Positions 10,013-54,462 of a DNA stretch of 64,000 bases are shown here, in pieces. The notes below the pieces were generated by a model. That model saw only the letters and a program-made list of their open reading frames with translations. It had not been told where the DNA came from and ran no database searches. A program made the position numbers and the translations under genes. This DNA is from an uncultured Prevotella sp. GTDB lineage: Bacteria > Bacteroidota > Bacteroidia > Bacteroidales > Bacteroidaceae. The stretch is taken from positions 4,101 through 68,100 of the forward strand of contig CALUFN010000003.1 in assembly GCA_944319945.1 (NCBI GenBank), in the 5' to 3' direction. How positions within the stretch are numbered: the stretch's first letter is position 1; every line of letters begins with the position of its first letter.

Positions 10013-10220
10013 TGCGCAATTCCTCTAAAAATTCTTCCGCAGGTCTTGTTCTGCCTGCTTTAACATCTTTCAGACCGAGGTCGATGCCGGCAAGTATCTC
10101 TTCCTTGCTGATTGTTTCAGGGGTGTTTACGCTTAAGTCCTCAATGAGCTTATCAGACAGCCATTTCTTGTTGCTTTTCGGCAGCGACTAAAGGTGCTCC
10201 ATTGCTGTTAACGGCTTCAT
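10002..10220 (-). pseudogene. Putative antitoxin with in-frame TAG at codon 11
   Basis: Manual translation MKPLTAMEHL*SLPKSNKKWLSDKLIEDL...ISKEEILAGIDLGLKDVKAGRTRPAEEFLEELRNGI*. Overlaps the toxin start by 11 nt; GGAGG precedes the ATG. Confidence 0.75.
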
Positions 10221-10440
10221 GTCTTATTCCTCCTTGATTTTAATGTTATATTTGCAAAGATACGATTTTTTCCTGTTCGTGCAATGATTTTATCGTAAAA
10301 TGTTATTTATCCGTCAAATATGATTTCGATTTGTACCCGTTACCGGCGGGCACTGATGCGTCAATATAAGGAAGAAGCCTATTATGTGGTTTATGCTTGA
10401 TTAACTTATTGATTTACAATGTTTTATGACGCGCCTTGCA

Positions 10441-10519
10441 AAAGGCCGCCTTTTGCCGTGTAAAAGGTAACCTTTCAGGCCGTAAAAGGTTGCCTTTGGC
10501 GTGGTTAATGGCAACCTTT
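10441..10519. repeat. 22-bp-phased palindrome array 1 (4 units)
   Basis: Units at 10441, 10463, 10485, 10507: AAAGGCCGCCTTT, AAAGGTAACCTTT, AAAGGTTGCCTTT, AATGGCAACCTTT. Confidence 0.9.
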
Positions 10520-10573
10520 TGCAAGGACATTGGCATGCGTTTTCACGTTGTTTGAAAAATAATCGCAATTCGT

Positions 10574-16451: not shown

Positions 16452-16455
16452 TTAT

Positions 16456-16570
16456 ATGAATTAAGAATTATGAATTAAGAGTTTCAATATAATTAAGAAT
16501 TAAGAGTTGAGAATTAAGAAAATATGACTTGTTGGAAATTTTCTTAATTCTCAACTCTTAATTCTTAACT
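16456..16570. repeat. Heptamer-built palindrome (perfect 31-bp arms 16493-16523 / 16538-16568)
   Basis: TTAAGAATTAAGAGTTGAGAATTAAGAAAAT and its exact reverse complement, with further TAAGAAT/TGAAT units upstream. Confidence 0.92.
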
Positions 16571-16572
16571 TC

Positions 16573-17208
16573 CTAATATCCCAAATCCTCGCCCACTAAA
16601 ACTACGGTGTGGCGGCCTGCCGGGTGTGAGTTGCGCATGAAGTGGATGTAGTTGCAGATGCTCTCGGGCGAGTTGCAGTTATGGCATACGCCGTCGATTT
16701 GGCAGGGGGTCTTGATGTCGAAGCGGGCTGCGTTGATGGGGCTGGCCGTCGAGCGGGCGCGCGCCAGCGCGCTTTCCACGTCTTGCGTCACCTTGTTGAG
16801 GCCCACCACGAAGATTACGTTCTTAGGCCCGAAGGTGATGGCGGCCACGCGGTTGCCGTTGCCGTCGATGTTTACTATCACGCCGTCTTCGCTTATCGCG
16901 TTGACGCTCGAGAGGTAATAGTCGGCCGAGAACGCCTCGCGGTATATGCGTTGGGCCTCGTCGCGGTCGGCGGCCAGGTCGCGGTCTAATATGTTAAGGT
17001 TGCGCTTGTGCAGGGCCTCGGTCAGCCCCATGTCGCGTATGGTCATCGAGCCGCCCCACGTAACGCTGCTTCCGTCGGGTATCATCGCCGATATCTTAAT
17101 TACGGCCTCGGCCGCCGTTGGGCAGTATGTTGCGTTAAAGTTACGCCGTTGCAGGTTTTTTATCATCTTCTGCGCAAGGCGTTCGTTGCGCGTTTCCTTA
17201 GGTGTCAT
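16573..17208 (-). CDS. LUD-domain (LutC/YkgG-like) lactate utilization protein
   Basis: VTWGGSMT, NAISEDG, NIDGNGNRVAA, VVGLNK and C-terminal CHNC...C motifs. Confidence 0.85.
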   Translation of the reverse strand: MTPKETRNERLAQKMIKNLQRRNFNATYCPTAAEAVIKISAMIPDGSSVTWGGSMTIRDMGLTEALHKRNLNILDRDLAADRDEAQRIYREAFSADYYLSSVNAISEDGVIVNIDGNGNRVAAITFGPKNVIFVVGLNKVTQDVESALARARSTASPINAARFDIKTPCQIDGVCHNCNSPESICNYIHFMRNSHPAGRHTVVLVGEDLGY

Positions 17209-17324: not shown

Positions 17325-17403
17325 GGAGGCCTTCTTCTGCGTCGTAAAAGGTAACCTTTCGCGTTGCAATAGGTTACCTTTTACGATGCGAAAGGTAACC
17401 TTT
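17325..17403. repeat. 22-bp-phased palindrome array 2 (4 units)
   Basis: Units at 17325 (degenerate), 17347, 17369, 17391: AAAGGTAACCTTT, ATAGGTTACCTTT, AAAGGTAACCTTT. Confidence 0.9.
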
Positions 17404-17657
17404 CGGATTGATAGCGTATGCCGCTCGTGTGCTTACGGTTTTCGTCGGTTGTTGCTACGGCTTGTGTTGTAGTGTAAGCTAAAGGATGCTTTGTACTTAC
17501 GGTTTTTACAGACTGACGGTTGCCAGCCGTGCCTCGTGCGTCTTATGGCGGCTTGTCGTGCCGCCGTAAATAAAGACGTGTTTACGTGATTAAAACATTT
17601 TGTATTTACATTGAAATGAGCTAACTTTGCAGCCCGTAATACAGACACCGCAAGTAG

Positions 17658-20747: not shown

Positions 20748-21770
20748 ATGAAAAATCTGGATTGGGCAAATTTGTCTTTCGGCTATGTTCCGACAGACTA
20801 CAACGTCCGTTGCTACTATCGTGACGGTAAATGGGGCGAAATAGAAGTGTGCTCTGACGAATACATCAAGATGCACATGGCAGCCACGTGTCTGCATTAT
20901 GGTCAGGAGGCTTTCGAGGGTTTGAAGGCTTACCGCTGTCCTGACGGCAAGGTGCGCGTGTTCCGTATGGACGAGAACGCCGCCCGCCTGCAGAGCACAT
21001 GCCGCGGCATTCTCATGCCCGAGGTGCCTACTGAGCTTTTCGAGGAAATGGTTGCTAAGGTCGTACGCCTCAACCAAGACTACATACCGACTTACGAGAG
21101 CGGCGCTACGCTGTACATTCGCCCGCTGCTTGTGGGCATGTCTGCCCAAGTAGGAGTGCATCCGGCTTCCGAATACCTGTTCATGATATTCGTTACTCCC
21201 GTCGGTCCTTACTTCAAGGGCGGGTTTGCCGCTAATCCTTACGTCATCATTCGCGAGTACGACCGCTCCGCTCCGCTCGGTACGGGTATATATAAGGTGG
21301 GAGGAAACTACGCCGCTTCGTTGCGCGCAAACAAGATGGCGCACGACATGGGCTACGCTTGCGAGTTCTATCTCGACGCGAAGGAGAAGAAATACATGGA
21401 CGAGTGCGGCGCTGCCAACTTCTTCGGCATCAAGGACAACACCTACGTCACGCCGAAGTCTACAAGCATCTTGCCGAGCATTACCAACAAGAGCCTGATG
21501 CAGCTTGCCGAAGACATGGGCATGAAGGTGGAGCGCAGGCAGATTCCAGAGGAAGAGCTTGCCACGTTCGAGGAGGCCGGAGCCTGCGGCACGGCGGCCG
21601 TGATAAGCCCTATTTCAAAGATAGACGACCTTGAGGAGAAGAAGAGTTTCGTGATAAGCAAGGACGGAAAGCCCGGTCCGATATGCACGAAACTTTATAA
21701 TAAGCTGCGTAACATACAGTACGGCATTGAACCGGACGTGCACGGATGGACGAAAGTTGTAATCGAATAA
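20748..21770 (+). CDS. ilvE: Branched-chain amino acid aminotransferase
   Basis: LHYGQEAFEGLKAY, KVGGNYA, LPSITNKS and GACGTAAVISPI. Confidence 0.95.
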   Translation: MKNLDWANLSFGYVPTDYNVRCYYRDGKWGEIEVCSDEYIKMHMAATCLHYGQEAFEGLKAYRCPDGKVRVFRMDENAARLQSTCRGILMPEVPTELFEEMVAKVVRLNQDYIPTYESGATLYIRPLLVGMSAQVGVHPASEYLFMIFVTPVGPYFKGGFAANPYVIIREYDRSAPLGTGIYKVGGNYAASLRANKMAHDMGYACEFYLDAKEKKYMDECGAANFFGIKDNTYVTPKSTSILPSITNKSLMQLAEDMGMKVERRQIPEEELATFEEAGACGTAAVISPISKIDDLEEKKSFVISKDGKPGPICTKLYNKLRNIQYGIEPDVHGWTKVVIE

Positions 21771-21863
21771 GTTAGGATTTAAGAGTTAAGAATTAAGAAA
21801 ATCATCGTTCAAGCATACTTTCTTATATTCTTAACTCTTAACTTTTAACTCTTAATCTTAATT
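21771..21863. repeat. Heptamer-built palindrome between ilvE and trmB
   Basis: TTAAGAGTTAAGAATTAAGAAA (21779-21800) versus TTTCTTATATTCTTAACTCTTAA (21819-21841), plus extra units. Confidence 0.85.
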
Positions 21864-22643: not shown

Positions 22644-22748
22644 AAGGGTGGAAAGGTAAAAAAGTAAAAAGGTAAAAAAGTAAAACTGCATCACAGGATT
22701 TGAATGCTTTACTCTTTTACCTTTTTACTTTTTTACCTTTCCACCCTT
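22644..22748. repeat. Octamer-built (GGTAAAAA) palindrome with 41-bp arms and 1 mismatch, between convergent genes; likely bidirectional terminator
   Basis: Arms at 22644-22684 and 22708-22748. Confidence 0.9.
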
Positions 22749-22755
22749 TCACTTT

Positions 22756-23853
22756 TTATTTTATTTGTACGATCTTAGTGGGGCTTTGTTCCTTATTCCG
22801 CCTGTTGGTCATCGTCACCACGGCTTGGGCGAGATTGATAAACGCCTGGCCGGTAACGGTGCCTGCGTTGAGGGCCGACGGTGTGCCCGCATCGCCGCTT
22901 TCGCAGATGCTTTGCACCATCGGAATCTGCGCCAATAAGGGCAGGCCCATCTCTTTTGCAAGGTTTTTGCAGCCGTCTTTACCGAAGATATAATATTTGT
23001 TCTCAGGCAGTTCGGCCGGTGTAAACCAAGCCATGTTTTCTACAAGTCCGAGTATTGGCACGTTCACCTTGTCGTTCCTGTACATGTCTATGCCCTTGCG
23101 AGCGTCGGCAAGGGCCACCTTCTGCGGCGTGCTCACTATCACGGCACCCGTTATGGCCAGTGTTTGCAGCAGCGTGAGGTGGATGTCGCTCGTGCCGGGA
23201 GGCGTGTCAAGGATGAAATAGTCAAGGTCGCCCCAGTCGGCGTCGCCGATAAGCTGTTTCAGCGCGTTCGACGCCATGCCTCCCCTCCAAAGCGTGGCCG
23301 TGTCCGGATTGACGAAGAAACCGATGCTGAGCAGCCTCACTCCGTATTTCTCTATAGGCTCTATCAGGGCGCGTCCGTCCTTGTTCACGGCGTAAGGGCG
23401 AGCGTCCTCAACGTTGAACATCTTAGGCATCGACGGACCGAATATGTCAGTGTCTAATAGGCCCACCTTGTATCCCAATCGTGCCAGCGCGATGGCGAGG
23501 TTGGCCGCCACGGTGCTTTTGCCCACTCCGCCCTTGCCCGAGCTTACTGCTATGGTGTTTTTCACCCCCGGCAGCATCTTGCCCGGCTCGGGGCGCGGTT
23601 TTGATTTAGTCTCTACGGTAATCGTCACCTCTACGTCTTTGTTCACATGATAATGTATGGCCGCTTCCGCCGCTTTAATCGTCGACTTCATGAAGGGGTC
23701 GGTGTCGCGTGGGAATATCAGCGAGAACGACACCTTCATGCCGTCAATACGCATGTTGTCGGCTATCATTTCGCTTTCAACCAGATTCTTTTTCGTGCCG
23801 GGATACGTTACCGTAGCCAGCGCGTCTGTTATTAATTTAGGATATAGTGTCAT
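22756..23853 (-). CDS. mrp: Mrp/NBP35 (ApbC) Fe-S cluster carrier ATPase
   Basis: N-terminal DUF59-like region, SSGKGGVGKST, DTDIFGPS, DTPPGTSD and ENMA. Confidence 0.92.
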   Translation of the reverse strand: MTLYPKLITDALATVTYPGTKKNLVESEMIADNMRIDGMKVSFSLIFPRDTDPFMKSTIKAAEAAIHYHVNKDVEVTITVETKSKPRPEPGKMLPGVKNTIAVSSGKGGVGKSTVAANLAIALARLGYKVGLLDTDIFGPSMPKMFNVEDARPYAVNKDGRALIEPIEKYGVRLLSIGFFVNPDTATLWRGGMASNALKQLIGDADWGDLDYFILDTPPGTSDIHLTLLQTLAITGAVIVSTPQKVALADARKGIDMYRNDKVNVPILGLVENMAWFTPAELPENKYYIFGKDGCKNLAKEMGLPLLAQIPMVQSICESGDAGTPSALNAGTVTGQAFINLAQAVVTMTNRRNKEQSPTKIVQIK

Positions 23854-23944: not shown

Positions 23945-24046
23945 TAAGGCTGTATGGCGCATTTCCAAAAGGTGTCCTTTTGCCTTGTGAAAGGTAACCT
24001 TTTGCCTCCTGAAAGGTTACCTTTTGCAGCCTAAAAGGTGGCATTT
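23945..24046. repeat. 22-bp-phased palindrome array 3 (4-5 units)
   Basis: Units at 23968, 23990, 24012, 24034 (AAAGGTGTCCTTT, AAAGGTAACCTTT, AAAGGTTACCTTT, AAAGGTGGCATTT), plus a degenerate unit at 23945. Confidence 0.9.
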
Positions 24047-24384
24047 TGCAATCCGCTCGGGCACGCGTGCCGCCTTGAGTCCGTATGTCGTTGACTTTCA
24101 GTGAGGAACGAATGCAATCCGGTCGGCATTCTGACGCGACTTGGCGGCTCCCCGCCCGGCCGGGGCGCGTGGGCGGATGAAAACCCGGACATTTGCTCGC
24201 GTGAAAATGAAACGATGGCGGCCGTTTGTCATGTTTTTATCAAAAAACATAGATTGGAATGCGTTTTTATCGGTAAAATTTGTTATATTTGCACCTCGTA
24301 AGCGAGACGTGGCCAATATGCGGCTTGCATGTTTACCGCGCTGGCGTTGCAGGGAATCTAATTAAAGTATAAACACTAAATTTT

Positions 24385-35411: not shown

Positions 35412-36296
35412 ATGAGATTAGCGGCAATAGACATTGGTTCAAACGGAGCGCGACTGCTCATTAAGAACTTCAGGACTGCCCAAGACGGCAGCCAACAGAT
35501 TTCACGCGTGATGTACATGCGTGTCCCCCTGCGTTTAGGTTCCGACGTGTTCACGCTCGGAAAGATATCAAAGGAACGCGCGGTGATGATGAAGCACATG
35601 CTGAAGGCGTTTTACCAGCTGATGAAACTCAACTCGGTTGACGACTACCGCGCCTGCGCCACATCGGCCATGCGCGACGCCGAGAACGGCAAGAAGGTGC
35701 TCGACAAGCTGCGCAAGGCCACCGACATCGACATTGAGATAATCAACGGCCGCGAGGAGGCCCGTCTGCTGTGCAACAACATTGTGGAAAACATCGGCAG
35801 CGCAAGCGGCAATTACGCTTACATCGACGTGGGCGGAGGCAGCACGGAGATATCTCTGCTCCACGACGGGCAGCTCAGCCACAGTCACTCTTACAACATC
35901 GGTACGCTGAGGATGCTCGGCGGCATGGTGTCGAAAGAGACCGTGGAGAACATGAAGGCCGACCTTCGCCGATTCGCCCAAGACATGCCCGACGTGCGCA
36001 TGATAGGCTCCGGAGGCAACATCAACAAGCTCTTCAAACTCACCCACTCGGGCAAGGACCCGCGCGAGGTGACCATTGCCGAGATAAAGGATGTCTACGC
36101 CAAGCTCAAGCAGCTGAGCGTCGACGAGCGCATAGAGCAGTACGGCCTTAAGGCCGACCGCGCCGACGTGATCATTCCGGCGTCTGAGATATTCATGATA
36201 GTGGCCGACGCCCTCGGATGCGACAGTATACAGGTGCCTAACATCAGCTTGGCGGACAGCATCATCGACGGACTCTATCGCACGAAGTATGAATAA
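35412..36296 (+). CDS. ppx: Exopolyphosphatase Ppx/GppA (catalytic domain only)
   Basis: AAIDIGSN, ATSAMRDA, GREEA, DVGGGSTE and RADVI. Confidence 0.9.
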   Translation: MRLAAIDIGSNGARLLIKNFRTAQDGSQQISRVMYMRVPLRLGSDVFTLGKISKERAVMMKHMLKAFYQLMKLNSVDDYRACATSAMRDAENGKKVLDKLRKATDIDIEIINGREEARLLCNNIVENIGSASGNYAYIDVGGGSTEISLLHDGQLSHSHSYNIGTLRMLGGMVSKETVENMKADLRRFAQDMPDVRMIGSGGNINKLFKLTHSGKDPREVTIAEIKDVYAKLKQLSVDERIEQYGLKADRADVIIPASEIFMIVADALGCDSIQVPNISLADSIIDGLYRTKYE

Positions 36297-36428
36297 TTAA
36301 GAAAATGAATAATGAAAAATGAACAATGAAAAATCAGGGAATGAAAAACGAATAATCAGGATATGTGTTTCAGCTTGAACAAAGTCTAACCGGAATTTTT
36401 CATTGTTCAGTTTTAATTTTTCATTCGT
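36297..36428. repeat. AATGAAW heptamer-built imperfect palindrome after ppx
   Basis: AATGAAT/AATGAAA/AATGAAC units on the left and TTTTTCATTGTTCA...TTTTTCATTC on the right. Confidence 0.75.
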
Positions 36429-49501: not shown

Positions 49502-50065
49502 TTAGAATTTTATTTCGGGAGCCTTGTCGTAAGCCGCGCGCTCCTCTTGCGGCACCTCGAACATCGGCTCCTTGCCGAACTTGAACATCTTGGCGAAAAT
49601 GTTCGACGGGAACGTCTCCACGGCGTTGTTAAGCTCACGCGTGGTAGAGTTGAAGAAGCGGCGTGCGGCCGCCAGCTTGTTCTCCAGGTCAGACAGCTCC
49701 GTCTGCAGGTGCATGAAGTTTTGGTTGGCCTTGAGATCCGGGTAGGCTTCGAGCGACACTTTCAGTCCTGCCAATGCGCTCGACAGGGCGTTCTCGGCGT
49801 TGATCTTCTCGTTGATGCCTGTAGCGTTGACGGCGGCCGAGCGTGCTTCGGTCACTCGTTGGAGCACTTCGCGCTCGTGGGTGGCGTATCCTTTGACCGT
49901 AGATACGAGCTGCGGCACGAGATCGTGGCGCTGTTTCAGCTGCACGTCGATGTTGGCGAATGCGTTTTCGCGGTTGTTTCTAAGTTTCACAAGGTTGTTG
50001 TAAAGGCTCACTCCCCATATCACGAGGAGCACCACGATCACTAAAATAATGATTCCGATAGTCAT
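49502..50065 (-). CDS. lemA: LemA family protein
   Basis: N-terminal TM, YNNLV, QLKQRHDL.P, EAYPDLKAN and ENKLAAARRFFN. Confidence 0.95.
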   Translation of the reverse strand: MTIGIIILVIVVLLVIWGVSLYNNLVKLRNNRENAFANIDVQLKQRHDLVPQLVSTVKGYATHEREVLQRVTEARSAAVNATGINEKINAENALSSALAGLKVSLEAYPDLKANQNFMHLQTELSDLENKLAAARRFFNSTTRELNNAVETFPSNIFAKMFKFGKEPMFEVPQEERAAYDKAPEIKF

Positions 50066-50098
50066 GATTCTATAAAATTGTTATTTGGTCTTGGTATG

Positions 50099-50251
50099 TC
50101 TTATGCAAAGATAATGCCAGCGAGCGCAATGCAAGTTTACTTGTAAATTGCCGAGCGCAGCTTATCTTATCTAAAGATAATGCCAGTGAGCGCAATGCAA
50201 GTTTACTTGTAAATTGCCGAGCGCAGCTTGTCTTATGCAAAGATAATGCCA
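50099..50251 (-). repeat. 66-bp tandem repeat (2 full units + partial) upstream of lemA, each unit bounded by a -7 promoter box
   Basis: Units start at 50099, 50165 and 50231; TATCTTTG on minus at 50106-50113 and 50238-50245. Confidence 0.92.
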
Positions 50252-50417
50252 TTTGCCTGAATGTCATAGCTTTGTTAAGATTTAATTCAAATCTTTTTAT
50301 ATTTTATTCTTTTGCCGCTGTTCTTTTGCTTCACGGCTACTGTTGCGCATACGCTGCGGCGGCATGTACGGCATATGTTGGCACCTATCGTAACATGTTG
50401 ATTCATAATGTTTTATG

Positions 50418-50496
50418 AAAGGTTGCTTTTTACGTTGCAAAAGGTTGCCTTTTAGGCTGCAAAAGGTAACCTTTTACACGGCTTAAGGTAGTCTTT
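50418..50496. repeat. 22-bp-phased palindrome array 6 (4 units)
   Basis: Units at 50418, 50440, 50462, 50484: AAAGGTTGCTTTT, AAAGGTTGCCTTT, AAAGGTAACCTTT, TAAGGTAGTCTTT. Confidence 0.9.
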
Positions 50497-50558
50497 TACA
50501 TGAGCATTGCCGCTGTATAGCCCTTTAGGCCCGGACCGCAGGCTGTTAGTGTGGCATG

Positions 50559-50596
50559 AAAAAACGGCGTTACGCCACATCAGGCGTAACGCCGTT
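50559..50596 (-). terminator. Intrinsic terminator of the SLT gene
   Basis: 14-bp stem AACGGCGTTACGCC/GGCGTAACGCCGTT followed by a U-run on the minus strand. Confidence 0.85.
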
Positions 50597-50601
50597 ATCG
50601 G

Positions 50602-51033
50602 TTATTTCAGCAATTTCATCACCTTGTTGAAGTATTTCTGCGTGCCCCTTACGCTGTACTTCGGTCCGCCGTTCCACGACCTGATGGCCTTCTCTACGTT
50701 GTTTTGAGGGTTGTGGTATGACTGTATCAAGACGAACATTTCCTTAGATTTCGCCACGTTGAAACGGTCAGACAGCTTGAATCTTTTCTTACTGTTCCTC
50801 TTTTTCAGGATTTCGTTGCATTCCTTCACCAAGATCGGAGTTATCTGCATGGCCCCGCACGAGTTGCCGCTTACCGCTTTAGGGTCGCCCTCGCTTTCCA
50901 CTTCAATTATCGCATCCATCACCGGATTCCAATTGAACTTCGAGCCTTTCGCTCCGTTGCCTGCGGCAAGGACGTGCAGACCCGCCGCGAAGATAAATAA
51001 TGTCACAAATACTTTTCTTAACAATCTGTTCAT
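50602..51033 (-). CDS. Small secreted lytic transglycosylase (SLT/lysozyme-like) protein
   Basis: Signal peptide, AIIEVESEG (catalytic Glu), GAMQITP and AIRSWNGG. Confidence 0.8.
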   Translation of the reverse strand: MNRLLRKVFVTLFIFAAGLHVLAAGNGAKGSKFNWNPVMDAIIEVESEGDPKAVSGNSCGAMQITPILVKECNEILKKRNSKKRFKLSDRFNVAKSKEMFVLIQSYHNPQNNVEKAIRSWNGGPKYSVRGTQKYFNKVMKLLK

Positions 51034-51492
51034 ATTATCCTGTTTATGGCACCTGGACATAAGTGAAAGTTGGATGTCCGCGACGTGCGGTTTGTGTGTA
51101 AAATAATGCTTAAACCGCGTCTGGATGCCAGTTGAAAACTACACGGATAGCGGCTTTCAAAACAAAAGAAGACTCACTATCCTCATCTTTTTACCGCTGC
51201 AAAGGTATGAAAAATTTACTTACCAGCCAAGCATTTTTCGCTTTTTTGAACATTTTAATATATTGATGGTGTTTTGTATGTCATTGGTAATCAATGGTTT
51301 AATGTTGTTTTGTGTAAAATGTTTTAAACTCGTTTAATCATCCCGTTTCAGTCGTTTAACACTGCTCTGATGGTGTTTTTGCGCATGTCTTCACGGTGTG
51401 GCAGGCCGTGTCGACGGTCCGCCAAGCCGCCGTTTTTCGTGCAATTCTTATCATGTGTTTTCCTGAAAATTGCATTTGTCAGGAAAATTCCT

Positions 51493-51568
51493 TATTTTTG
51501 CATAAGATAAGCTGCGCTCGGCAATTTGCAAGTAAACTTGCATTGCGCTCGCAGGCATCATCTTTGCG
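51493..51568 (+). repeat. Single copy of the 66-bp promoter-bounded repeat upstream of queD, inverted relative to 50099-50251
   Basis: TATTTTTG at 51493 and CATCTTTG at 51559 are 66 bp apart; the interior matches the lemA units with few mismatches. Confidence 0.9.
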
Positions 51569-51606: not shown

Positions 51607-51945
51607 ATGTATTACGTTTCAAAACAAATGGAGATAGCCGGTTGCCACCGTCTTGAGCTGCCGTATGACAGCAAGTGCCGCAAGGTGCACGGCCACAACT
51701 GGATTGTGACAGTATATTGTAAGTCGCGCGAGCTTAACGCCGAAGGTATGGTGGTAGACTTCAAGGATATCAAGGAAAAGATTCACGGCTATCTCGACCA
51801 CGGCGACTTCAACGAGCTGTTGCCGTTTAATCCCACGGCCGAGAACATCGCCCGCTGGATATGCGAGCAGGTGGACCACTGCTACCGTGTGGACATAGAG
51901 GAGAGCAGGAACAACAAGGTGGTTTACGTTAAGGATGAGGACTGA
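51607..51945 (+). CDS. queD: 6-carboxy-5,6,7,8-tetrahydropterin synthase
   Basis: AGCHRL, CRKVHGHNW, VDFKDIK and NPTAENIA. Confidence 0.9.
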   Translation: MYYVSKQMEIAGCHRLELPYDSKCRKVHGHNWIVTVYCKSRELNAEGMVVDFKDIKEKIHGYLDHGDFNELLPFNPTAENIARWICEQVDHCYRVDIEESRNNKVVYVKDED

Positions 51946-52568: not shown

Positions 52569-52641
52569 TTGCGGAGGCAGGACTCGAACATGCGACCTCC
52601 AGGTTATGAGCCTGGCGAGCTACCAACTGCTCCACTCCGCG
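52569..52641 (-). tRNA. tRNA-Met (CAT), initiator type
   Basis: CGCGGAG-TGGAGCAGTTGGTAGCTCG-CCAGG-CTCATAA-CCTGG-AGGTC-GCATG-TTCGAGT-CCTGC-CTCCGCA-A; C1:A72 mismatch; CCA not encoded. Confidence 0.93.
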
Positions 52642-53629: not shown

Positions 53630-54376
53630 ATGGGATTATTATCAGGTAAGACCGCCCTTATTACAGGTGCGGCGCGCGGTATAGGTAAGGCTATCGCGCT
53701 GAAATTCGCCGAAGAGGGTGCTAACATCGCCTTCACCGACCTTGTAATAGACGAGAACGGAAAGGCTACCGAGGCTGAGATCGCCGCTAAGGGCGTAAAG
53801 GCGAAAGGCTACGCAAGCAATGCCGCCGACTTTGCTCAGACTGCCGACGTGGTAAACCAAGTGAAAGAGGATTTCGGCTCTATAGACATCCTTGTGAACA
53901 ATGCCGGAATTACTAAGGACGGGCTCATGATGCGCATGACCGAGGCGCAGTGGGATGCAGTAATCGCCGTAAACCTTAAGTCGGCGTTTAACTTCATACA
54001 TGCCTGCACGCCGATAATGATGCGCCAGAAGAGCGGAAGCATCATCAACATGGCGTCTGTGGTAGGCGTTCACGGCAATGCCGGCCAGTGCAACTACGCT
54101 GCGTCGAAGGCCGGACTGATAGCACTTGCCAAGAGCATCGGCCAGGAGATAGGTTCGCGCGGCATACGTGCCAACGCCATCGCTCCCGGATTCATCGAGA
54201 CGGCCATGACGCAGGCTTTGCCCGACAACATCCGTAAGGAATGGATACAGAAGATACCGCTGCGCCGCGCAGGTCAGGTGGAAGACATCGCCAACGTGGC
54301 AACGTTCCTCGCCTCAGACCTCTCTTCTTACGTTACCGGCCAGGTAATACAGGTAGACGGCGGAATGAACATGTAA
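53630..54376 (+). CDS. fabG: 3-oxoacyl-ACP reductase
   Basis: TGAARGIG, NNAGIT, YAASK and NAIAPGFI. Confidence 0.93.
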   Translation: MGLLSGKTALITGAARGIGKAIALKFAEEGANIAFTDLVIDENGKATEAEIAAKGVKAKGYASNAADFAQTADVVNQVKEDFGSIDILVNNAGITKDGLMMRMTEAQWDAVIAVNLKSAFNFIHACTPIMMRQKSGSIINMASVVGVHGNAGQCNYAASKAGLIALAKSIGQEIGSRGIRANAIAPGFIETAMTQALPDNIRKEWIQKIPLRRAGQVEDIANVATFLASDLSSYVTGQVIQVDGGMNM

Positions 54377-54462
54377 TTAATTAAGAGTTAAGAGTTAAGA
54401 AAATACGCCCTTGCGGCTTTCCTAACTCTTAATTCTTAACTATAAACTCTTAATTCTTAATT
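54377..54462. repeat. Heptamer-built palindrome between fabG and the pseudouridine synthase gene
   Basis: TTAAGAG x3 on the left and CTCTTAA/TTCTTAA units on the right. Confidence 0.85.

Follow-up and report, generated by a model that had tools for sequence, protein, structure and literature searches.

A 66-bp hairpin-forming repeat found next to −7 promoter boxes represents an apparently undescribed family of small elements in Prevotella-group bacteria

Introduction

What is the 66-bp repeat that separates a −7 promoter box from the start codon of two genes, lemA and queD, in an uncultured Prevotella species, and what does it do to the promoters in which it sits? Prevotella and Segatella, both dominant in the gut, remain difficult to work with genetically, and maps of their promoter architecture have become available only recently. 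In Bacteroidota, promoters of the σABfr type carry a −7 box, TAnnTTTG, and a TTTG near −33 (PMC7366714; 10.1101/2024.04.05.588293 for Segatella copri). A sequence-only reading of the window, the whole 64,000-nucleotide stretch of DNA analysed here, took the repeat for a mini-element that duplicates the −7 box and regenerates a full promoter, pushing the older regulatory DNA 66 bp away with each copy. We find that the repeat is one member of a family of small hairpin-forming elements, apparently undescribed so far, in gut and mouth bacteria of the Prevotella group; many unrelated genes probably acquire a structured leader or a spare promoter from it.

Results

The 66-bp period upstream of lemA spans 50099-50251 of the window, with 2.3 copies at 93-94% identity (Tandem Repeats Finder and a repeat search), in agreement with the two full units and the partial one that had been read by eye. 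The 40-nt core of the unit occurs exactly three times in the window, against 0.00 occurrences expected from shuffles. On the minus strand, in the direction of transcription, the resident −7 box of the lemA promoter, TATCTTTG (50245-50238), is preceded by the ancestral 5′ flank AAATGGCAT. It is followed by the distal 66-nt unit (50172-50237), with its hairpin core CAAGTAAACTTG at 50198-50209 and its terminal box mutated to TATCTTTA, and then by the proximal 66-nt unit (50106-50171), which has its hairpin core at 50132-50143, matches covariance model R1 with E=2.6e-20 and ends in the canonical box TATCTTTG at 50113-50106. Directly after this terminal box stands the 8-nt start of a third unit, CATAAGAC (50098-50105, minus strand), the fraction in an "n + fraction" array. 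The terminal box lies 40 nt from the ATG of lemA (49502-50065, minus strand), the first gene of lemA-htpX(M48)-DUF362 (Pfam LemA, Peptidase_M48 and DUF362), and the TTG reported 18 nt before the box can be read from the sequence. The array yields a spurious 65-aa ORF, and the LemA proteins of relatives are annotated with longer N-termini.

On the plus strand, the resident −7 box of the queD promoter, TATTTTTG (51493-51500), is followed by a single 66-nt unit (51501-51566; R1 E=1.4e-21) with its inner hairpin, GCAAGTAAACTTGC, at 51528-51541 and a non-canonical terminal pseudo-box, CATCTTTG (51559-51566), 40 nt before the queD ATG. The genes downstream are queD (51607-51945, plus strand; PTPS family) and then queE (radical SAM). 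This copy, also noted earlier, was recovered as an inverted match at 51492-51567, 92% complementary over 76 nt. The 1.3 kb between the inverted lemA and queD copies, which holds an SLT-like gene, was considered as an invertible segment; its orientation is the same in all nine related contigs that span the region, and the idea was therefore dropped.

The internal hairpin described from the sequence is present in all three window copies, and it is just the centre of a palindrome that covers the entire unit. In the direction of transcription, the left arm reads A(T/G)AAGATAAGCTGC(A/G)CTCGG and the right arm (G/C)CTCG(C/T)TTGCA(T/C)T(A/G)TCTTTG(C), the last 8 nt of which mimic a σABfr −7 box and pair with the left arm. 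The outer stem joins the left end, GCAnAAGATAAGC, to the right end, GCAnTATCTTTGC; within it, 88% of the helix 1 cells are paired, with compensatory changes at columns 14-66, 15-65 and 16-64. Between the arms lies an inner stem-loop with an asymmetric 2-nt bulge of free sequence. The inner stem differs in sequence by subfamily and keeps its complementarity, so that copies with the same arms carry GCAAG/CTTGC, GAAAG/CTTTC, GTGAG/CTCAC, GTGAA/TTCAC or AGAG/CTCT. Over the whole palindrome 90% of cells pair, and 11 cells are changed on both sides compared with 4.7 ± 1.5 in shuffles, none of 500 shuffles reaching 11; when the partner is slid by 1-3 columns, at most one two-sided change cell is found. 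Folding of 40 unit variants gave no consistent strand bias (the antisense strand folds better in 24 of 40), nor did wobble counts show a clear one (24 G-T versus 18 A-C), and RNA and DNA structure are therefore indistinguishable here.

Scans of genomes, metagenomes and viral contigs, together with finished replicons, place the unit at 17 distinct loci in at least eight genomes or species of Prevotella, Segatella and Prevotellamassilia, from chicken, human and deer gut and from the human mouth. The usual layout is a −7 box, the unit and a box-like end, and at 15 of the 17 loci the unit points, in sense orientation, at a start codon that follows after 15-132 nt. The genes 3′ of the units are unrelated in function and include lemA, queD, sppA, UDP-GlcNAc 2-epimerase, fumarate hydratase, a porin and C_GCAxxG, among others. 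At one locus (L035/L041 type) the array is antisense, in the 5′ region of an MFS gene and beside a degenerate box, and at another (L042) a BrickBuilt-like element is inserted in one unit. In gut DNA runs the unit has 10-40 times the k-mer depth of its flanks, and a finished 317-kb replicon of Segatella hominis HDD12 (NZ_CP137560.1) holds three copies, at 214755, 265787 and 274774. A BLAST search of a 1.77 Mb oral Prevotella replicon with its own unit returned that one copy only, so that copy number is not high everywhere. Paralogous copies within one genome differ by 6-12%, and no recent transposition event was seen among them. As in the window, no transposase lies near any copy at the loci examined. 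A second scan of viral contigs with the right-arm pattern gave no match, and Rfam 15 gave no relevant one for the window at gathering score, for the region at E<=10 or for four other loci at E<=1. The literature on Prevotella MITEs, on TAnnTTTG in connection with repeats and on the Segatella copri transcriptome does not describe the element.

Sister species provide the empty sites that had been predicted. At lemA, queD and C_GCAxxG their orthologous promoters have just one box, and neither nhmmer nor the covariance model finds a unit in L047-L062 and L064-L074; the units at these promoters are therefore insertions. At the empty lemA promoters (L047-L053) the sequence reads AAATGGCATTATCTTTG and then becomes unrelated, while the empty queD promoters (L055-L062) have one box followed by GCATAAATAATTG or similar; the distance from box to ATG at empty sites is 36-37 nt. 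Presence and absence differ between species only, and no such polymorphism was observed inside one species. Copy number at lemA also varies, as expected by the sequence-only reading, with one copy in L004, two in the window and in L002, L003, L005, L006 and L008, three in L007 and five in L001, and the L035-type locus has from one to five or more copies, array counts from short-read assemblies being lower bounds. The arrays thus have the head-to-tail copies and the strain-to-strain differences in number of a variable-number tandem repeat. Several loci have a partial unit of variable length (0-25 nt) after the terminal box, for which a simple cut-and-paste model does not account. Furthermore, at lemA and at L023 the right end of the unit matches the 5′ flank of the resident box (GGCAT and GCGC, respectively), a match that points to copying by homology or to subsequent homogenisation and away from a clean site-specific insertion.

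The two boxes that bound a unit behave differently. The upstream box is a canonical TAnnTTTG at 15 of the 17 independent loci, which bears out the proposal of a dispersed element beside −7 boxes, and the left junction always falls after TTTG(C) or TTTGT. The terminal box is canonical at only 5-7 of the 17. The two free positions of resident boxes differ between loci (TC, TT, AC, CC, GC and AT, that is TATC, TATT, TAAC, TACC, TAGC and TAAT), whereas the terminal box always reads ..TCTTTG, with TCTTT invariant, and in many cases is decayed or departs from the canonical form (TGTC, AATC, CATC). In arrays the G of the internal boxes is lost (TTTA), and at single-copy loci the sequences after the two boxes are unrelated. 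Because the sequence of the terminal box is independent of that of the upstream box, the terminal box is part of the element and there is no target duplication; the claim that the unit duplicates the resident −7 box has to be given up. In the finished S. hominis replicon the upstream boxes are intact and the terminal boxes degenerate in three cases out of three. This asymmetry, with intact upstream boxes and often degenerate terminal ones, makes the resident upstream box look like the promoter that selection keeps. Where a σABfr promoter has TTTG near −33, the unit has a shorter TTG, 18 nt ahead of its terminal box.

RNA data bear on one locus, L032, the runs for the window's own species covering lemA and queD too thinly to bear on their start sites. 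At L032 two metatranscriptomes show no coverage upstream of the left box, and their RNA contigs begin inside the unit (positions 858 and 823) and continue into the coding sequence; these are low-depth assembled contigs, not mapped transcription start sites.

Discussion

The likeliest explanation, and one that we hold with some reserve, is a non-autonomous palindromic element, about 66 nt in length, whose point of insertion is immediately 3′ of TTTG(C). Transcription would make it a hairpin in the 5′ leader, and a second promoter would come with it only in some cases. Its copies lie directly 3′ of the TTTG(C) of a resident −7 box in sense orientation, the antisense array of the L035/L041 type being the exception. 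The element would be copied into new promoters by a mechanism that joins the unit after TTTG(C). This could be the work of a putative enzyme acting in trans, with the conserved arms and hairpin as its recognition site, in the manner of REP or IS200/IS605-type elements, or alternatively of box-guided template switching, and recombination or slippage between box repeats would lengthen and shorten the arrays. The main promoter would still be the resident upstream box once the unit is inserted, so that the mRNA would start with the element as a 5′-terminal hairpin, which could alter mRNA stability or translation. The pseudo-box of the element would presumably act as a second start point, often weaker or decayed.

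A more specific and unlikely version of such an element is promoter-homing, in which a candidate enzyme, for example a single-strand-specific HUH/Y1 nuclease or a recombinase, would recognise the arms and hairpin and integrate the 66-nt unit at the TTTGC of the σABfr −7 box, perhaps during melting of that box in the open complex. A 5′-terminal leader hairpin and a spare −7 box would then come with every insertion, and re-insertion after the unit's own TTTGC would give tandem arrays; those with mutated internal boxes (TTTA) would persist because they could no longer be resolved. If integration were indeed directed at the −7 box, this would to our knowledge be the first mobile element with a core promoter element as its target, and it might serve as a promoter-tagging tool for Bacteroidota.

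The model of the sequence-only reading, in which the unit is a complete promoter (TTG at −33 plus the terminal −7 box) that drives the gene and displaces the old regulatory DNA by 66 bp per copy, we regard as rather unlikely for the family as a whole. It draws on lemA, where the canonical terminal box has a TTG 18 nt upstream and its 40 nt to the ATG correspond to the ancestral distance of the empty sites, and on the canonical terminal boxes of L022, L023, L024 and L025. It is opposed by terminal boxes that are non-canonical or decayed at 10-12 of the 17 loci, queD (CATCTTTG) and all three S. hominis copies included, while the upstream box is intact at 15, by the L032 RNA contigs that run from inside the unit into the gene, and by a −33 match of TTG only. 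Judged from the boxes, a role as transcribed leader is likelier for the unit than displacement of regulatory DNA. Since both outer boxes are canonical at lemA, promoter displacement is still viable there and may hold at that gene. A transcript of the unit by itself is quite improbable. The unit would in this case be a small RNA gene or attenuator whose RNA of about 55-60 nt starts from the upstream box and ends at the hairpin and the U-rich UUAUCUUU of the next box, arrays being tandem sRNA genes. Indeed, the hairpin (columns 17-62) is directly followed by ATTATCTTT, in which TCTTT is invariant, one metatranscriptome contains unit-length RNA contigs of 95-96 nt, and the RNA runs are far deeper over the unit than over its flanks; but the DNA runs are deep over the unit as well, so high RNA depth is expected from copy number alone. 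Moreover, where the terminal box is decayed (L020 and two S. hominis copies), the gene 15-28 nt downstream could be expressed by read-through only, and the unit is therefore no efficient terminator at these loci. Rfam holds no match, and a simple terminator scan did not call the unit, a σ70 promoter and terminator scan being uninformative for this phylum.

Two further explanations would do without a mobile element. Dyad symmetry, location in promoters and high conservation across species would suit a vertically inherited operator for a dimeric transcription factor, with lemA, queD and the other genes as its regulon. We consider this very improbable, as sister species lack the unit at the orthologous promoters, the genes that it precedes have unrelated functions and the 66 conserved nucleotides go far beyond the needs of an operator; a stem that changes in sequence and keeps its complementarity, together with an asymmetric 2-nt bulge, fits a folded single strand and not a double-stranded DNA operator. 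That the repeat is purely local, a lemA promoter segment duplicated by slippage and carried 1.3 kb to queD by gene conversion, has next to no probability, although the two loci are inverted neighbours and have in common a species-specific GGCAT variant of the right arm. Fifteen further loci carry the unit, on different replicons and in different species, and those from the genome and metagenome scans rule out local duplication as a full explanation; the queD copy itself may have arisen from the lemA copy by a local event.

A non-autonomous leader element of the kind we favour, with its fixed offset from the box, its box-like end and its variable copy number, would be a new source of strain-to-strain regulatory variation. 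The units could also explain breaks between assembly contigs and mis-called upstream ORFs, and could serve as a marker for strain typing.

Several known systems share features with the unit. The Correia elements (CREE) of Neisseria are small, non-coding, intergenic and palindrome-ended, are often co-transcribed to form mRNA hairpins and can create or carry promoters. They measure 100-155 bp, with 26-bp terminal inverted repeats, a TA target duplication and promoters of the σ70 type, and we know of no transposase dedicated to them. Unlike the unit, they have no fixed offset from a resident promoter box and form no 66-bp tandem arrays, and there is no sequence relationship. The pneumococcal BOX elements (boxA-boxB(n)-boxC) and the enterobacterial ERIC/IRU are likewise intergenic, transcribed, hairpin-forming repeats, and BOX elements contain a variable number of tandem 45-nt boxB modules and can alter the expression of neighbouring genes. 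Both, however, belong to other phyla, differ in modular structure and bear no relation to a promoter box. REP and REPIN sequences resemble the unit in their short imperfect palindromes, conserved flanking bases, compensatory hairpins and extragenic dispersal, sometimes in clusters. An associated RAYT, an IS200/IS605-like Y1 transposase, is what defines REPs, which number in the hundreds and are found mostly behind genes or between convergent ones, whereas the unit precedes a start codon in sense orientation at 15 of 17 loci and is present at three copies per 317 kb in the finished replicon.

Within Bacteroidota, the BrickBuilt MITE of Porphyromonas gingivalis is also intergenic, has promoter activity, contains tandem repeats and is found at distances of 49-591 nt from genes (PMC4596501). 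It differs from the unit in being several hundred bp long and built of a leader, 23-nt repeats and a tail within terminal inverted repeats (PMC4596501), has no box-to-box architecture and shows no sequence similarity to the unit. In common with MITEs, the unit has terminal inverted repeats, dispersed non-coding copies and empty sites in relatives; the target-site duplication of MITEs is absent, as the right box does not follow the left. IS200/IS605 elements carry a hairpin near each end and a Y1 HUH transposase, whereas the unit has one central hairpin in one long palindrome. Their resemblance to the unit, which is a lead and not a test, extends to their miniature derivatives (PATEs) and lies in the way they insert, 3′ of a fixed short target of 4-5 nt and with no target duplication. 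These elements and their derivatives rely on DNA hairpins with extrahelical bases, and an element of this kind could re-insert after its own end, which would give tandem copies.

The repeat unit at lemA and queD

Tandem Repeats Finder and repeat searches delineate an array of 2.3 copies with a period of 66 bp (50099-50251, 93-94% identity) upstream of lemA-htpX(M48)-DUF362 (minus strand, lemA ATG at 50065), and an inverted copy at 51492-51567 (complementary, 92% over 76 nt) upstream of queD-queE (plus strand, from 51607). A small SLT-like gene (50602-51036, minus) lies between them, and a tRNA gene (52569-52641, minus) sits between queE and a TetR-family gene. The 40-nt core of the unit has three exact matches in the window, compared with none expected from shuffles. 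In the direction of lemA (minus strand), the upstream −7 box TATCTTTG (50245-50238) is followed by unit 1, with the right end TATCTTTA, by unit 2, with the right end TATCTTTG (50113-50106), and, directly after this terminal box, by an 8-nt partial third unit; the ATG is located 32 nt beyond the partial unit and so 40 nt past the terminal box. The queD locus (plus strand) has the upstream box TATTTTTG (51493-51500), a single unit with the right end CATCTTTG (51559-51566) and the ATG 40 nt further. Every sequence detail described at these loci in the sequence-only reading is present, and every contig from the window's species carries units. The lemA array also encodes a spurious 65-aa ORF consisting of a repeated peptide (50070-50267, minus), and three LemA homologues (P0009, P0011 and P0040) are annotated as 204-207 aa because a promoter-internal upstream ATG (aAATGGCATTATC) was taken for the start.

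The whole unit is a conserved palindrome

Folding shows that the inner hairpin is only the centre of one long palindrome spanning the whole unit, in which the left end GCATAAGATAAGC, directly following the upstream box, and the right end GCATTATCTTTGC, including the terminal box, pair with each other. The queD copy has a fold z-score of −4.75 on its antisense strand, and neither fold energies nor wobble pairs indicate a strand preference. When 18 aligned units from different loci are scored on the full-palindrome structure, 90% of cells are paired, and the outer stem carries double-sided changes at three pairs (14-66, T-A to C-G; 16-64, A-T to G-C; and 15-65). There are 11 double-change cells versus 4.7 ± 1.5 after shuffling, a number reached in none of 500 shuffles, and a control with the partner shifted by 1-3 columns gives at most one. 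The arms are conserved across copies and the inner stems vary with complementarity retained, the variants being GAAAGCAAGCTTTC (locus L063 and Segatella hominis), GTGAGCGAGCTCAC (locus L042), AGGATAAGTGAACTTTCCT (oral Prevotella), and GTGAACAAGTTCAC and AGAGCAAGCTCT (contig ends from sequencing runs). The inner stem contains a 2-nt bulge of free sequence, and the internal loop (ACTC/CTC) is invariant. In L042, an insertion of some 470 bp that resembles a MITE (10090-10545), with ~60-bp internal tandem repeats, inverted ends CACC(A/C)GATAAA and an 8-bp duplication CACAATGC, splits a unit between the hairpin and the right arm.

Empty sites and copy-number variation

Sister-species contigs, reached via LemA homologues with 96% and 90% identity, contain no unit detectable by nhmmer or a covariance model. 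The lemA promoters of the 96% group (gggaAATGGCATTATCTTTGttctcat..., 36 nt from box to ATG) and the 90% group (aaaATGGTATTATATTTGta...) have a single box at the ancestral distance to the ATG, and the queD promoters of the 90% group have a single box followed by GCATAAATAATTG or similar. Likewise, the C_GCAxxG gene has a unit in human-gut contigs, and its promoter in relatives (87% and 90% identity) shows a single box with no unit. These single-box promoters show that the units are insertions, or gains, younger than the respective species splits, in agreement with the earlier prediction of empty orthologous sites. In the closest "empty" C_GCAxxG relative (L074, 1460-1490), the leader after the single box, GCATGGGATAAGCCGCAC, is identical to the unit start at 15/18 positions when compared with the unit-carrying locus L032 (817-925), and could be the scar of a lost unit or an extended homology favouring insertion. 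Between the C_GCAxxG gene and an OPT transporter gene, spacer length ranges from 168 to 340 bp in ten samples of one species (L064-L073, about 2253-2600), which suggests another variable repeat.

The predicted copy-number variation is also borne out. Independent assemblies carry 1, 2, 3 or 5 units at lemA, and the L035-type locus carries 1 to 5 or more, these counts being lower bounds since short-read assemblies tend to collapse arrays. Microhomology-flanked deletions occur in two lemA alleles, one of 37 nt that takes the left box (L005, about 340-380, junction AAGCT) and one of 11 nt in the 3-unit allele, within the proximal unit's right arm (L007, about 390-440).

A dispersed family placed after resident promoter boxes

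Genomes, metagenomes, viral contigs and finished replicons combined yield 17 distinct loci. A pattern scan of species-representative genomes finds the unit in gut MAGs of Prevotella and Prevotellamassilia (human, deer and other hosts), metagenome contigs add several human-gut loci and viral contigs one match, and BLAST against plasmid records adds finished replicons of S. hominis HDD12 (317 kb) and of Prevotella sp. oral taxon 299 (1.77 Mb). The complete HDD12 replicon holds three copies of a single hairpin subfamily. In chicken-gut DNA runs containing the window's organism, unit k-mers reach 10-40 times the depth of the flanks, and these communities therefore contain many more copies. A Rikenella MAG (L019, 3086-3128) has a 43-nt hairpin homologous to the core (nhmmer E=1.8e-10), without promoter boxes, between ahcY and rho and inside another palindromic repeat (GTCATCCCGAGCGAAGCCGAGGGAC ... 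inverted).

At 15 of the 17 loci, a sense-oriented start codon follows 15-132 nt downstream of the unit. The genes are unrelated, encoding LemA, QueD, SppA, UDP-GlcNAc 2-epimerase, fumarate hydratase, a porin-like protein, a C_GCAxxG protein, lipoproteins and a 56-aa protein. The exceptions are the L035/L041-type array, which is in antisense orientation, separates the ATG of an MFS gene from a promoter and adjoins a degenerate box, and an oral Prevotella unit 185 nt upstream of its gene with another box intervening.

A canonical TAnnTTTG box bounds the unit upstream at 15/17 loci, as predicted, and the two free positions of the resident boxes vary (TC, TT, AC, CC, GC, AT). The terminal box is constantly ..TCTTTG, with TCTTT invariant in the unit alignment; being independent of the resident box, it belongs to the element and does not represent a target-site duplication. 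It is canonical at 5-7 of 17 loci, with the queD and L076 entries classified by eye, and elsewhere reads TGTC, AATC, CATC or is decayed. In two unrelated species, array-internal boxes have lost the G (TCTTTAG in the window; TCTTTAA/TCTTTAC in the L035 type). In the S. hominis replicon, the upstream box is intact and the terminal box degenerate in all three copies, two of which have the gene start 24-28 nt beyond the terminal box. Because the terminal box is mostly degenerate and the upstream box mostly intact, the resident upstream box seems to be the one kept by selection. The earlier interpretation is supported in part: targeting, empty sites and copy-number variation stand, but outside lemA it is doubtful that the gene's promoter has been replaced by the unit's own box.

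In S. copri, too, promoters are marked mainly by the −7 box (10.1101/2024.04.05.588293), and the median 5′ UTR of Bacteroides thetaiotaomicron is 32 nt (PMC7366714). Transcription from the upstream box would place the RNA 5′ end at the base of this extended hairpin. At L032, two metatranscriptomes show zero coverage upstream of the left box and contigs that start within the unit and continue into the coding sequence, weak but direct support for read-through from the unit into the gene.

How the unit may spread

The left junction always lies directly after TTTG(C), and the element itself ends in TCTTTG(C). A fixed target without duplication resembles IS200/IS605-type insertion. Recognition by a protein that acts on a folded strand is favoured by the conserved arms, the invariant ACTC/CTC loop and a bulged hairpin maintained through compensatory change; no transposase was seen beside any copy at these loci. 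Since the unit ends in its own target, re-insertion after itself could yield tandem arrays. Alternatively, three features favour template switching guided by the boxes, or at the least subsequent homogenisation and deletion: GGCAT, matching exactly the ancestral sequence 5′ of the lemA box, is present at the right end of every lemA unit and in the queD copy, GCGC precedes both boxes at locus L023, and an extra partial unit of 0-25 nt follows the terminal box at several loci.

Other repeats and comparison with known systems

Two other kinds of repeat occur in the window. Tandem 22-bp repeats (consensus AAAGGTAACCTTTTNCGNTGCN) occupy three intergenic sites (50418-50499, 17339-17405 and 23968-24050) and recall the 22/23-nt repeats of Porphyromonas gingivalis (PMC4596501); in DNA runs their k-mer depth reaches 5-7 times flank depth, and they therefore constitute a second dispersed minisatellite family. 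Heptamer arrays (AATTAAG/TTAAGAG) followed by inverted arrays (CTCTTAA/TCTTAAT) form long hairpins right after stop codons (16455-16577, 21770-21861, 22652-22758, 36289-36425 and 54381-54462), for example after fabG at 54376, and appear to be a family of terminators built from repeats.

The 66-bp unit has no match in Rfam, and a literature search found no description of it. As a small palindromic intergenic repeat it works like Correia elements, REP/REPIN, BOX, ERIC and the BrickBuilt repeats of Porphyromonas, but it lacks the features that define those systems, having no target duplication, a position that is not after genes, and a single hairpin. What distinguishes it is a fixed site after a −7 box, a box-like end and arrays with a 66-bp period.
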